This document shows positions 5,244 to 20,060 of a stretch of 27,197 nt of DNA, piece after piece (the stretch's first letter is position 1; every line of letters begins with the position of its first letter). The notes under the pieces are model-generated. The model had not been told where the DNA came from, ran no database searches, and saw nothing but the letters and a program-made list of their open reading frames with translations. Both the position numbers and the translations under genes were made by a program. This DNA comes from an uncultured Alphaproteobacteria bacterium (GTDB lineage: Bacteria; Pseudomonadota; Alphaproteobacteria; GCA-2731375). The stretch lies in NCBI GenBank assembly GCA_964007795.1, contig CAXGCE010000001.1, positions 1-27,197 on the forward strand, written 5' to 3'.

Positions 5244-5406
5244 GGTGATAATAAGGGCGGAAATTCACCACCATGTCGAGTTATGGGTGATCCATGGTGG
5301 CGGTCTGGCTCCATCTAAATTCCTTTCTATAGAGTTAGTGCAGATCAAAATCAGAAATTTGCATTGCCTTCCAATCTATACCAGTTCCGGGTGCCAGCTT
5401 CACGCC

Positions 5407-12555: not shown

Positions 12556-13617
12556 ATGAGAATTGAAACACTGCTACCATTAGGCAAGCTTGATCCAGGT
12601 CTGCGCGCACCGGAACAGCCGCTGGACATCGATACAGTCAGCGCGGAGGCCCGCCTTGTGGAGCAGCTCGGCTATGACCGTCTGGTAGTAGAGGAGACCA
12701 AGGATGATCCGTTTGTGATCATGGCCCTGGCGGCGGCGTCAACTGAGACCTTAGGTCTGGGAACCTCTGTTGCCATCGCCTTTCCGCGTAGTCCGGCGAT
12801 TATGGCTATGTCCGCCTGGACTTTGCAGAAGCAGTCTAAGGGTCGATTTTGTTTGGGCCTGGGCACCCAGGTGCGTGGCCACATTCGGCGCCGGTACGGT
12901 ATGGAGTGGTCTACGCCGGGACCCTGGATGCGGGACTATATTGGCGCCGTGCGGGCTATCTGGCAGTGCTGGCAGGACCGCACGCCCCTGGAATATCAAA
13001 GCAATCACTACAATCTGAACCTCATGGTTCCCCTGTTTGATCCAGGGCCCATCGCGCATCCGGATATTCCAATTGTCGTTGCTGCTGTAGGGCCGCGGAT
13101 GTGTGAGGTGGGCGGCGAGGTTGCCAATGGCATTCGTCCCCATCCCGTTTGCACGCCAAAGTATATCGACCAGGTTATGTTACCGGCAGTCAAAGCCGGC
13201 TTGGCAAGGGCGGGACGCTCCCTGGACGGTTTTGAAATCGCCATGAAACCATTGGTAGCGACGGCGCCTAACGAGGACATCTTGGCGCAACGGGTGCGAG
13301 ATGCCCGCGCCCGTATCGCCTTCTACTGTTCCACACCGGCCTATCGCCGCGCCTTCGAGATCCATGGTTTGGGCGATTTGGCGACCGAATTGGCGCAATT
13401 GTCAAAGGCTGGGCGTTGGAACGAGATGCCTGAACGTATTAGCGATGATATCCTGCACGAATATGTCGCGGTGGGTACATATGATCAGATCGGAGACATA
13501 CTGGTTGACCGTTTTGACGGCGTCGTCACCAGCATCGAATTTTCCATTGCTGCCAGAGACGAACATGTTCAGGCTACTTTGCAGGATCTGGTACAGAAAA
13601 TCCGACAAACTGGTTAG
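12556..13617 (+). CDS. Luciferase-like (LLM) oxidoreductase, resembling the putative F420-dependent MSMEG_2256-type family
   Basis: ETKDDPF, TSVAIAFPRSP, GRFCLGLGTQVRGHI, AAVGPRM, HPVCTPKY and IAFYCSTPAYR match my recollection of that LLM subfamily. TGGAG SD. Cofactor not provable from sequence. Confidence 0.8.
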   Translation: MRIETLLPLGKLDPGLRAPEQPLDIDTVSAEARLVEQLGYDRLVVEETKDDPFVIMALAAASTETLGLGTSVAIAFPRSPAIMAMSAWTLQKQSKGRFCLGLGTQVRGHIRRRYGMEWSTPGPWMRDYIGAVRAIWQCWQDRTPLEYQSNHYNLNLMVPLFDPGPIAHPDIPIVVAAVGPRMCEVGGEVANGIRPHPVCTPKYIDQVMLPAVKAGLARAGRSLDGFEIAMKPLVATAPNEDILAQRVRDARARIAFYCSTPAYRRAFEIHGLGDLATELAQLSKAGRWNEMPERISDDILHEYVAVGTYDQIGDILVDRFDGVVTSIEFSIAARDEHVQATLQDLVQKIRQTG

Positions 13618-15973: not shown

Positions 15974-16876
15974 TCAATAGCCTGAACGCCAAATGTCCTG
16001 GGCGGCTGTCTTGCCGTCGGCGATGGCATGGGCAATCTGACCGCCATGACCCGCGCGCACCGCTCCGGCGGCATACAGACTTGGTTGATCAGTTTTCATA
16101 TGTTCGTCCACCAACAACGCTCCACTTTCGTCACATGCTGCTGAAACAAGGCCAGTACGCGGGGCGAGACCGATAAAAGGGAATACCGCAGCCACCGCGA
16201 GGGTTTCGCTCTCGCCGCTTTCTATGTTCCGCAATTCAATTGCTTCTACGCCTTCGGCTCCCTTGATTTCCACGACCTCCGTTTGCCAACAAAAGTGCAT
16301 ATTATCCCGGTCCGCTGCCTGGCGTACAAAAGCAGGCCTGGCGCGCGGTTTAAGGCCGCGCAGGACCATGGTGACATTGGCGCATAAATTGGCCAAATGC
16401 AGGGCCTCTTGAAATGCGGCATCGCCGCCGCCGATCACGGCGACATCCTGTTCCTTGTACAGGCCGCCATCGCAAAATGCGCATTGTGAGACGCCTCTCC
16501 CGTTTAATTCCGTTTCACCCGGCACAGCCAACGTGCCTAATTCCGCTCCCGTCCCCAGGATGACATGGGCGGCGGTGATCTCACCCAGACGCCAATGATC
16601 TCCCTGCCGCGAGAGATCAGTAATCGCGACTGGGCAATAGTCTACGCCCGCTTCAAGGGCTTCGCCCAACATTGTGTTTATAAGATCCGCTCCAGAGACG
16701 CCGGTGGCGCCAGGGTGGCCGTGAATATCGCCTACGTTGATGATCAATCCGCCCAGTAGTCCTTCATCGATCAGAGCAGTTTTAAGGCCGCAGCGGGCGG
16801 CTTCTGTAGCTGCCGCCAATCCGGTAATCCCAGCCCCAATTACTGCCACTTCATAACTGTTACGTGGAATTGGCAT
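15974..16876 (-). CDS. Thioredoxin reductase-like FAD-dependent disulfide oxidoreductase (divergent TrxB family)
   Basis: VIGAGITG FAD motif, LGTGA, GRGVSQCAFCDG (CxxC at 16472-16483) and VIGGGDAAFQEA. The ATG directly abuts the upstream TAG. Confidence 0.88.
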   Translation of the reverse strand: MPIPRNSYEVAVIGAGITGLAAATEAARCGLKTALIDEGLLGGLIINVGDIHGHPGATGVSGADLINTMLGEALEAGVDYCPVAITDLSRQGDHWRLGEITAAHVILGTGAELGTLAVPGETELNGRGVSQCAFCDGGLYKEQDVAVIGGGDAAFQEALHLANLCANVTMVLRGLKPRARPAFVRQAADRDNMHFCWQTEVVEIKGAEGVEAIELRNIESGESETLAVAAVFPFIGLAPRTGLVSAACDESGALLVDEHMKTDQPSLYAAGAVRAGHGGQIAHAIADGKTAAQDIWRSGY

Positions 16877-18109
16877 CTAGATTCCTAAGGTTTGAATTTT
16901 TTTGGCGATCCGGCAGGGCGGAAAGCCCCAAGTGGGTAGGTAGGCACACTGGGGTATCGGGATGTCGCCGCCCGCGACAATGATGGTGATGTCGTCAGGG
17001 CTCTTTACGGCCGGCACCCGGTCATTGGCGACTCCCGCCTTGACCCAGGCCGGCCATTTGGTCTTTCCTGCCAAACGTGTGGGCAGCCAGGAATTTTCAA
17101 AATCTGCCGCTGTGCATCGGCCATGCTCATGTAAATAGGTTTTCACATCGGCCTTTGAAAGACCTTCGTCAGCTAAGACCTTGGCTATATGAGGCGCCAA
17201 GATCACCGTTACTTGCCCTCCATGCAGACGGGAAAAGGCGGAGGTGGCGGATGCCATGACCGTGGCGATATCGTCTAACCCGCCAGTAACGTTAATGACG
17301 CTTTCCGCCCGCTGTACGACCAGGACGCTATCATCGACAGTAAAGCCTAGTTCTTCGCGCAAACTCTCCCAGGGATTAAAGGCGTCATCCTCGGCTAGAC
17401 ACAGGCTATAGCGGCCCGGTTGTCCCAAGCCCGCGAAGGCGACCGCTGCTGGCCAACCACCGCCCAAATTATGCATGATCAACCGCACGGCCCGGCCGAT
17501 GGCTCCATTGGCTCGCCATCCCGGCCCAAGCGCACCAAATCGGCTGTTCATATGCAAGGTTTTGGCTAAGGGCCCCGACAGCATCAACAGCGGGGTGACA
17601 TTTTCATCGGTCGTTTGGACCCCGCGCAAATTGAAGGCTGGGTCTAACAGGGCTTCCGTTGCTACCATAACCACCGGCATGTGGATATCCTCACACCCCG
17701 CCATGACCGCATTGATGGCAACTTTTTCGATGGTTACTACGCCCTTCAACGGCTCTGCCTCACCGAGCACTTTGTTACGGGGCTGACCGCCGGCACGCAG
17801 CATCCCATCCACCCGGTTCGTCGTCGGGGGCACGATCGGTAGACCGTCGGTCCAGCCCCGCCGGTAGAACATCTCGTTCACCACCCCATCAGCATTTGGC
17901 CCACGTACCACTTCAATCCGTTGCCGGGGAAATGCTCCGACCTGGTTTAGACGGTCCAGGAGGCCTTGCTCTTCTGCCCGTGTCCGCAGGGTGTCATCAA
18001 TCCACTCGCCGGTGGATCGTTGGCCCGTTGGCAGCAACACCCACAAGGTCTCACCTTCACTCACACCGAGCGGCTCATCCGGCGTTGGCCAATTTATTCT
18101 GCCAGTCAT
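16877..18109 (-). CDS. Protein of unknown function, paralog of the large C-terminal domain of the upstream UGSC selenoprotein
   Basis: Shares GW(T/S)DGLPIVPP, AGC..MP, GP, GAL..G..AN..IGR and LAE motifs with 18075..19805. Start uncertain: ATG 18109, or GTG 18064 which has an SD-like GGATGAG; 18175 is unlikely. Confidence 0.85.
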   Translation of the reverse strand: MTGRINWPTPDEPLGVSEGETLWVLLPTGQRSTGEWIDDTLRTRAEEQGLLDRLNQVGAFPRQRIEVVRGPNADGVVNEMFYRRGWTDGLPIVPPTTNRVDGMLRAGGQPRNKVLGEAEPLKGVVTIEKVAINAVMAGCEDIHMPVVMVATEALLDPAFNLRGVQTTDENVTPLLMLSGPLAKTLHMNSRFGALGPGWRANGAIGRAVRLIMHNLGGGWPAAVAFAGLGQPGRYSLCLAEDDAFNPWESLREELGFTVDDSVLVVQRAESVINVTGGLDDIATVMASATSAFSRLHGGQVTVILAPHIAKVLADEGLSKADVKTYLHEHGRCTAADFENSWLPTRLAGKTKWPAWVKAGVANDRVPAVKSPDDITIIVAGGDIPIPQCAYLPTWGFPPCRIAKKIQTLGI

Positions 18110-19805
18110 TTGGCAGGCGGATTGCCCGCGCCGTTGGGAAACCGAGGATTCCGTTGTGAGAGAATACTTGGGCATTGGTACGGCCTGGATCGCCGCTCAC
18201 AGCAATCTGGATATCTTTAGAGTTACAGACGAGCGGTACCAGGCGATCGGGATCCTGGGATTCTCCATACAGTTCATTGGCTTTGCCCAATCGAGCCAGT
18301 TCGAACACGGAGCGTCCACCGGAATATAAATTAGTGAACTCGGTAATATACTGCTCGAACTTCCAGGCCGGAATGCGGGCATTTTGGAACAGCCATTGAC
18401 GCACATCGTCTTTTGACCAGCCAGCCTTAGCTATGGTTTCAGCCAATATTGGTGAGATTACTAGCAGGGGATTGTAGCTGCCATCAGCCATGCCTACGGT
18501 GAAGATCAACTGCCAGCCAGTCTGGCTGATCAGGGCATCTGCCAGATAGGGAAGCATTTCCTCCGGCGTCCGACCGAAAACCGAGGCAATGACATCCCCG
18601 CCCGTGAAACGCGAGATAGTGACCACATTGTCGCCCCGGCCATGGCCGAAGTCGGCCGCATGCGGCGGCCAGCCGATCCTGGCCAATGTGTCCTCGTTCT
18701 CAGCCAAAACGACCCGCCAGGTATTGCCGAATGTGCCCTTATCGGTCTGATGCAGGATAAAACCGGCAACATTGCGTAGGTACAACCGCCACCAACGGCC
18801 GATGGAGGTATTTGCCTGGAAGCCGTCGCGTAGCGCACCCTGTTCGTAGTTGAACTCCAGATCCTTGATGATGGGGCCATTAATGGTAATCAATGTTTCC
18901 GCGCCTGGCGTATTTCCAGAATGTTCTACGCCGTAACCTGGATCGGCCATAGCTTCAGCTAAACTAACCAATACGGGCATATACTGGGGTCGACAGCCCG
19001 CCAAAACACCGTTGACGGCCACATTCCAGATGGTGGCTTGACGGTTATCGGGGGGCAGTTGGCCGATGACGTGATCCGCAGGCAAGTCCGTGAACTCGAG
19101 AAAATTTTCCACTTTTTCCCGTGAAGGGGGCACAATGGGCAGGCCGTCTGACCACCCATTTTCATAGAAGAACCGATTGATTTCCTCAAATGTACCCTCC
19201 ATGACCATGTCCTGGGGTCCAGGTTCCGGGATCATCACAGCCGCTGGTGGGGCGGATGTAAGGTTATCGATCACATCTTTCAAAGTGACGGAAGTCAGAT
19301 TGTCCCGAAGTTCGTTGTCGGTTTGTGTATCCACGTGTCCCGGCACTTTGGCCATGGGCAGATTTGGAAGGCCTAGGCCGACGGCGGTGGTGGCCCCTTG
19401 GCCTAGGAAACCTTCACAGACGAGTGAGGAGGATGGAACTCCAGCGGCTTCGACGGCGGCTGATGCCCGCAACACGGCGGGGGTACAGCTGCCTCAACAG
19501 CCCATGCCGGATATAATGGCGTCAACCTTGTGTTCCGCCAGAGTATCCGGCAAATCGGCGATAATCTGGCCTTCTTCATGCCCGTGGGTGGAACCGAAGG
19601 TGCTATAGCCGACAAATTTCATGTCCGGATAGGCCGCTGATAATTCGGCTTGTAGAATAGGAAAAATTTCATCGCCCCGGAACAGATAGTCCCAAAGGAA
19701 GGCCACGGTCTTTCCTTCTAGGGTTTTCAGTCTTGGTGCCAAGGGCGCGATCTCAACAGTTTTTTCGCCGCGCGGCCAAAGCGCACCATACGTTTGCTCG
19801 CTCAT
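18075..19805 (-). CDS. Predicted selenoprotein, UGSC type, with in-frame TGA (19494-19496) read as Sec104; ~576 aa fusion with a large domain of unknown function
   Basis: Minus strand reads ATG GGC TGT TGA GGC AGC TGT ACC CCC = M-G-C-U-G-S-C-T-P, and both flanking ORFs are in one frame. A SECIS-like hairpin follows the TGA. ATG 19805 has a GGAGA SD, and there is no obvious SD before the track's GTG 19475. Confidence 0.85.
19455..19493 (-). promoter_or_regulatory. Candidate bacterial SECIS element
   Basis: Directly 3' of UGA: GGC A GCUG UACC CCCGC CGUGUU GCGGG CAU CAGC C GCC. Stems of 3+4+5 bp; the G/U-containing apical loop begins 17 nt after UGA. Folded by eye. Confidence 0.7.
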
Positions 19806-20060
19806 GCTCGTCTCCAAAATCTTTGAATTGTGGAAAGTTTAACGCATTTGTCGACTTGCGCCATAGAGCCAAATCCGATCGCCTAACTGCAGGAAGAATT
19901 TTTATCGCAGCTACGGTCAACCGATCGTAATCGCTTATCCCATCCATAGCCCTGTGCAGGACGGGTCAGTCCCCATAGCACCAGCAAATCCAGCTTCAAT
20001 TTGTGCAGGTCCTGCCACAGGTAAATAAATTCGCGGAGAATCTGACGGGCAATTTTTTGA

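Follow-up and report, generated by a model that had tools for sequence, protein, structure and literature searches.

The locus described here lies in a stretch of 27,197 nt, hereafter the window, which comprises positions 1 to 27,197 of contig CAXGCE010000001.1 from the genome of an uncultured alphaproteobacterium (GenBank assembly GCA_964007795.1). Its minus strand carries a candidate selenoprotein gene of 576 codons plus a TGA stop (18075-19805), in which an in-frame UGA at codon 104 would be read as selenocysteine (Sec) and would join a domain of the UGSC family to a long, uncatalogued partner domain. The listing of open reading frames (ORFs) and their translations gives at this place a 107-residue ORF with a TTG start (19494-19817), whose C-terminus, ISGMGC, is followed by TGA. 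Past this TGA (19494-19496) the same frame continues as GSCTPAVLRAS and stays open for 472 further codons to the stop at 18075-18077, as an initial annotation of this DNA had reported, and the motif around the in-frame TGA then reads G-C-U-G-S-C.

The start was placed at ATG 19805, because the N-termini of homologs favour it, with few residues ahead of a conserved WPRG motif, and because direct reading of the sequence gives a ribosome-binding site, GGAG (19812-19815), at a spacing of 6 nt. The result is a single frame from ATG 19805 to the stop at 18075-18077, 576 codons long, with the internal TGA at codon 104. Besides this continuous translation and the homolog N-termini, the complete gene is supported by tblastn matches that cover residues 1-580 in 50 or more loci, and by an AlphaFold2 model of the whole chain. 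Just upstream of the gene start there is a weak sigma-70-like promoter match (TCGACA, 16 nt, CACAAT; 19827-19854, minus strand), which serves as a pointer only, as sigma-70-like sites are fewer here than in shuffled sequence.

A homolog scan with one genome per species gave 60 related loci. In 53 of these, with 56-98% protein identity and with isolate genomes of cultured Novosphingobium among them, the same position is taken by TGA, with GSCTP after it, and the roughly 470 downstream codons are open in all of them. In all 18 full-length database homologs the site holds Cys instead (C-G-[SA]-C). The alternation of Cys and TGA at residue 104, which the initial annotation had put forward as the mark of a Sec site, was thus found, and with it the assignment of the UGA at 19494-19496 as U104. 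Three codons further on, Cys107 (19485-19487), the C of U-G-S-C, occupies an invariant alignment column and is likely to be the resolving thiol. The residue before Sec is less regular: the vicinal Cys of CUGSC is indeed present here, but it is not a feature of the family, since most Cys forms and locus L068 have Ala and stand-alone paralogs have Asp.

These counts bear on whether the TGA might have arisen by nonsense mutation, or by an error in sequencing or assembly, and the locus be a pseudogene. An in-frame stop in a metagenome-assembled genome (MAG) is compatible with such an origin, as is the failure to find selC in the organism's own genome. However, the same TGA recurs in 53 independently assembled loci down to 56% identity, isolates included, the 472 codons that follow it are open and conserved, and the full-length chain is modelled with a mean predicted local distance difference test (pLDDT) score of 95.8 and a predicted template modelling (pTM) score of 0.94. 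The chance that the stop is a defect of the gene or of the assembly is therefore practically negligible.

Three loci show other arrangements. At L071:4001-5692 (MAG, Alphaproteobacteria bacterium BC3.45) there is a 52%-identical fused-type homolog with the context G-C-Y-G-A-C; it has no hairpin of the type described below, and its 4-kb flanks contain no thioredoxin-reductase-like gene. A distant fusion with 29% identity occurs in a Chloroflexi MAG (L074:4001-5623, motif S-A-D-U-G-G-C). In L077, around position 5296, the two parts are encoded separately, with the partner-domain gene first and a UGSC gene (G-D-U-G-S-C) after it. The fused state of L074 and the split state of L077 indicate that the two arrangements interconvert.

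The N-terminal part of the protein matches the UGSC domain of Pfam (PF24696) at 19257-19781. The match, which was also recovered in a scan of the whole genome, scores 99.7 bits against a gathering cut-off of 25 (E 2.7e-28) and extends over profile positions 3-171 of 172. It runs across the TGA, so that each of the two ORFs encodes one half of the same domain. The initial annotation had connected the motif with a described selenoprotein family of unknown function, and both the PF24696 match and the literature agree with this. UGSC was named as a selenoprotein of unknown function by Zhang and Gladyshev in 2007 (PMC1976440) and was counted among the most abundant selenoprotein families in aquatic metagenomes in 2008 (PMC2398784); reviews from 2022 and 2026 still class it as uncharacterised. 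Close relatives of the fused type are named 'UGSC family (seleno)protein' at NCBI. The equivalog cut-off of NCBIfam NF041046, which describes the 147-aa stand-alone form, was not reached (47.9 bits against 125), and judged by these scores the fused subtype is more divergent than that form.

The 39 nt after the UGA (19455-19493) fold into a hairpin of 3+4+5 bp with a CGUGUU loop that begins 17 nt after the UGA, at a minimum free energy of -21.9 kcal/mol. The selection acting on this region was assessed in a codon alignment of 54 Sec-type genes, from the codon entropy at the 295 columns where the amino acid is conserved. Normalised codon entropy averaged 0.63, and only six of the 295 columns were fully codon-invariant; four of these are the codons at +5, +6, +7 and +9 relative to the UGA (CCC GCC GTG. 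CGG), and codon +8 is always TTG or CTG. The 16 nt of the apical hairpin (19466-19481), which has a 5-bp stem CCCGC/GCGGG and a CGUGYU loop and starts 12 nt after the UGA, are thus invariant at synonymous sites in all 54 Sec-type sequences. An RNAalifold consensus keeps only the 5-bp apical stem (100% paired), together with a trivial 2-bp pairing further downstream. As a control, the codons for P-A-V-x-R were inspected in five non-Sec homologs (L090, L091, L092, L093 and L071); they vary in all five, and the hairpin is lost. Selection at the RNA level on the apical hairpin is supported by these comparisons, and a conserved element of five codons fits recoding of the SelB type. The hairpin proposed initially as a selenocysteine insertion sequence (SECIS) does fold as described, and its apical stem and loop are conserved, but the 3+4-bp stems below them are paired in just 67.7% of cells, without covariation, and so belong to this clade only.

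A second possibility is that the locus is translated in two parts, as an N-terminal peptide of 103-107 aa and, from GTG 19475, as a protein of 466 aa. Gene callers give exactly this split, as the initial annotation had anticipated, and database entries are mostly 466-468 aa long. Entries of 460-470 aa mostly begin (M/V)LRASA, which marks them as calls truncated at the GTG seven codons downstream of the UGA, and about nine-tenths of the closest database clusters are truncated calls of this type. The GTG in question (19473-19475) lies inside the SECIS loop and no Shine-Dalgarno-like sequence was found ahead of it, so that it appears to be a false start. In addition, the split would cut the UGSC domain midway, the Cys forms are single chains, and only the TGA forms show fixed synonymous sites downstream of the UGA. 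Separate translation of the two parts is regarded as very unlikely.

Both selA (583 bits) and selB (437 bits) were found in the organism's genome, above their cut-offs and adjacent to each other on contig C2. The genome also has selD (381 bits), which carries an in-frame TGA of its own in the classical GGG-U-GCK site. SelD-like matches lie at C325:169-1095 and C26:3105-4022, with the GGG-U-GCK Sec codon in selD; the second is within an open frame of 783 aa and may represent the Ndh-SelD fusion type mentioned in PMC2398784. The initial annotation had called for a search for the sel genes, and selA, selB and selD were present, whereas selC was not recovered in this incomplete MAG of 607 contigs and 77.6% completeness. 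In the same genus, 11 of 12 genomes gave a hit to tRNA-Sec of 66-73 bits, and ARAGORN reported tRNA-SeC(tca) in genome G009, the source of locus L095 from the same genus, and in two genomes of the same class.

PF24696 has seven matches in the genome, and every one of them contains a single in-frame TGA with G-[SA]-C after it. Besides the gene in the window, six UGSC genes are located at C8:14251-14748, C237:11-478, C23:1465-1962, C231:5-445, C4:6094-6579 and C440:2366-2656, and in the six UGSC paralogs with enough downstream sequence a hairpin is found about 12-15 nt after the UGA. The gene on C23 belongs to a second fusion of UGSC with a partner domain, of about 545 codons, and the stand-alone UGSC gene on C4 is followed by two partner-domain genes. 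Four genes similar to PrdB/GrdB (PF07355; C507:1014-1490, C47:1711-2463, C100:6261-6785 and C603:1162-1539) end at a TGA in the motif U-P-[VL]-C, and their frames stay open for more than 100 codons beyond it; they are probably further selenoproteins that gene callers truncate. Taken by its gene content, this is clearly an organism that decodes UGA as selenocysteine.

It is also conceivable that the UGA is read as a standard amino acid (Trp, Cys or Gly), through a changed genetic code or near-cognate suppression, and sequence alone cannot tell which residue is inserted. On the other hand, TGA is the ordinary stop for six of the 18 genes in the window, the gene discussed here included, so the code is not reassigned; in homologs the site holds Cys, in which sulphur takes the place of selenium; selA, selB and a selD of the Sec type are encoded in the genome; and the conserved hairpin fits recoding of the SelB type. 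Insertion of a standard residue is accordingly considered exceedingly unlikely.

The best explanation overall is a single gene for a 576-residue selenoprotein, with UGA-104 as Sec, a UGSC domain and a partner domain, and we put the probability of this reading at about 0.93. It agrees with the initial annotation, which had a protein of the same length with Sec at 104, and for which PF24696 across the TGA, the TGA in 53 loci and the start at ATG 19805 now speak. Within it, two parts are well supported by the comparisons of sequences and genomes: that codon 104 would be decoded as Sec by SelA, SelB, SelD and tRNA-Sec at the signal of the hairpin 12 nt downstream, and that the protein would combine a UGSC domain, with its U-G-S-C selenol/thiol pair, and a partner domain of about 390 residues.

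Several observations weigh against this explanation. One locus, L071, has Tyr (TAC) at the Sec site, from which it follows that the residue there is not strictly essential across the family. The stability of the hairpin is ordinary for GC-rich sequence (z = -0.38 against dinucleotide shuffles, 67 of 200 of which fold as well), and stability alone is therefore no evidence for a recoding signal. The apical stem shows no covariation, as it never varies, and nothing in Rfam matched 19300-19600 at E<=10, so that none of the catalogued SECIS models applies here. Neither Infernal nor ARAGORN found tRNA-Sec (selC, anticodon UCA) in the organism's genome; the best hit scored 39 bits against a cut-off of 47, and the candidates proved to be tRNA-Ser, tRNA-Cys and tRNA-Arg. 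This absence says little, because only about 16 tRNA genes were recovered from the 77.6% complete MAG. Finally, the electron-transfer scheme set out below draws on gene neighbourhood and analogy only.

The partner domain (18078-19250, minus strand) occupies residues ~190-576, and neither it nor the downstream paralog described below matched any model in Pfam or NCBIfam. No solved relative of the domain was found by sequence search of the PDB or by Foldseek. It is nevertheless very common, with 4088 clusters at 50% identity (E<=0.001), and has a conserved core with the motifs W-x-D-G-L-P-x-x-P-P-T and N-x-V-M-A-G-C. The Cys of the latter motif, Cys271 (18993-18995), is nearly invariant, being kept in at least 90% of 77 sequences and also in the paralog. 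A 'UGSC/Unknown_1' fusion was described by Zhang and Gladyshev in 2008 (PMC2398784), and the partner domain is probably their 'Unknown_1'. Partner domains are encoded beside stand-alone UGSC genes elsewhere, and in the organism's own genome a UGSC gene adjoins or is fused to a partner-domain gene in five out of five UGSC genes with enough flanking sequence. Among its Atlas neighbours the domain is also fused to redox domains of the AhpC/TlpA type.

Next after the fusion gene, at 16877-18109 on the minus strand or possibly from an ORF start at 18175, comes a second gene for the partner domain, which is unfused and shares 31% identity (BLASTP E 5e-36). Its frame overlaps the end of the fusion gene in the window region 18075-18175, by 35 nt if ATG 18109 is the start and by 101 nt if ATG 18175 is; the corresponding overlap amounts to only about 4 nt in several relatives. 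Abutting the stop codon of this copy is a gene for a thioredoxin-reductase-like flavoprotein of 300 aa (15974-16876, minus strand), which matches Pfam Pyr_redox_2 and has a CAFC motif. Its score on TIGR01292 is 234 bits, under the cut-off of 343, and a canonical trxB with 402 bits is found on another contig of the same genome, so that the gene in the window is a second paralog of thioredoxin reductase (TrxR).

A TrxR-like gene with a CxxC motif is present in the flanks of 50 of 58 loci with the fused gene (35 downstream, 13 upstream and 2 divergent), and at least two of the eight loci that have none are cut by contig ends. In 35 loci the unfused partner-domain copy sits between the fusion gene and the reductase gene. 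A TrxR-like gene is also near all four Cys-form loci among the 58, as well as in a fifth Cys-form context, and the remaining neighbours differ among the Cys-form contexts. An EthD gene, a luciferase-like gene and an upstream ABC transporter of the peptide type are conserved only among close marine relatives. The transporter was considered as part of the unit and rejected, given that it is linked in some marine relatives only, with other DNA between. The luciferase-like oxidoreductase in the window (12556-13617, plus strand) scores 373 bits on TIGR03617 (F420-dependent) against a cut-off of 278, and related loci suggest a Rhodospirillaceae-like alphaproteobacterium as the host of this match.

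From this neighbourhood, and by analogy, a possible mechanism can be outlined. The U104 selenolate would act as catalytic nucleophile or reductant in a reaction carried out jointly with the partner domain, in which Cys271 is nearly invariant. U104 would then be oxidised to a selenenylsulfide (Se-S bond) with C107, and the neighbouring, dedicated TrxR-like flavoprotein would re-reduce the U104/C107 pair at the expense of NAD(P)H. We give this electron-transfer scheme about even odds.

In the AlphaFold2 model Sec104 lies between a strand (residues 96-102) and a helix (107-120), at the N-terminus of the helix. The UGSC domain, which was also modelled alone (pLDDT 85), is predicted to be flavodoxin-like with five beta-alpha units. 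When it was compared with the PDB in Foldseek, only generic flavodoxin-like folds were returned, all of them weak with E values of at least 1e-3: CheY receivers, the flavodoxin domain of flavorubredoxin, ArsH and MccF. FtsZ and P-loop GTPase, LpxB and comparable alpha/beta folds are also among the top 50 matches, of which none carries a description as a protein of the thioredoxin family. A thioredoxin-like fold had been suggested for UGSC in PMC2398784; with five beta-alpha units in the models and no thioredoxin in the top 50, such a fold around the UxxC motif is not supported by the predicted structures. The best Foldseek hit of the full model, class I fumarate hydratase (E 2e-4), had a template modelling score of only 0.17 and was rejected as a relationship. 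A sequence search of the PDB with the full protein gave nothing at E<=10.

The family, its motif and a UGSC fusion with an unnamed domain have been known from publications since 2007-2008; the present gene is an ordinary member of that family. What is added here is a case-control demonstration of a minimal SECIS, evidence against a thioredoxin fold, and counts for the linkage to a reductase. For annotation, the locus should be given as one coding sequence with a Sec exception at 19494-19496, and the truncation seen in database entries is a systematic error that can be corrected. The fixed pairing with the partner domain, the private TrxR-like reductase and the presence of the gene in cultured Novosphingobium together make the function testable.

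In the bacterial SECIS of the E. coli fdhF type, a stem-loop stands immediately 3' of the UGA, within the coding region, and its apical part, 16-17 nt long and with G and U in the loop, begins about 11-12 nt downstream of the UGA. The hairpin described here is similar in its position 3' of the UGA, in the size of its apical part, in its spacing and in the G and U of its loop. It differs in sequence, has no Rfam match, and shows no evident bulged U in its 5-bp stem.

Compared with the UGSC family as described, the protein has the same U-G-S-C motif, an end-to-end Pfam match, the alternation of Sec and Cys with Sec forms predominating, and an aquatic bacterial setting. It differs in falling below the NF041046 cut-off and in having Cys before Sec, where the stand-alone paralogs have Asp. 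The fold is a further difference, thioredoxin-like in the 2008 paper and flavodoxin-like in the models obtained here.

A parallel outside the family is with selenoprotein B of the glycine/sarcosine/betaine reductases and D-proline reductase (GrdB/PrdB). The PF07355 hidden Markov model did not match this gene even at E<=10, although it matched four other genes in a scan of the whole genome. When 16 UGSC domains were aligned by hhalign with the genome's four PrdB-like proteins in their read-through form, the alignment covered 111 columns and placed Sec on Sec (probability 78.5%, E 1.7e-5); with Sec masked the probability was 61.5%, and reversed and column-shuffled controls gave 2% or less, all with a PrdB profile of only four sequences. 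Once UGSC clusters were set aside, PF07355 accounted for 78 of the 100 nearest named Atlas clusters, at low scores of about 0.53. A remote relationship of the UGSC domain to GrdB/PrdB is plausible on these sequence comparisons, without membership of that family. Both have a hydrophobic strand, a U-x-x-C at the start of a helix and then a G-[IV]-P-[ST] strand, and a gene for thioredoxin reductase in the same operon is reminiscent of the grd clusters. In contrast to GrdB/PrdB, the protein described here is not matched by PF07355 and its partner domain is unrelated and uncatalogued; no pyruvoyl proprotein of the GrdE/PrdA type was detected when all neighbouring genes were scanned with Pfam. The Sec of PrdB attacks the carbon of the substrate, and regeneration of the enzyme is the task of a dedicated electron-transfer protein (PMC11229817). 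GrdB/PrdB are found in amino-acid-fermenting anaerobes, whereas the hosts here are aerobic aquatic bacteria. It is possible, at slightly less than an even chance, that the UGSC domain, the partner domain in its fused and free copies and the TrxR-like flavoprotein form an uncharacterised, NAD(P)H-driven selenium enzyme of aerobic aquatic bacteria, whose Sec module would be related, at a distance and in miniaturised form, to protein B of the glycine and proline reductases.

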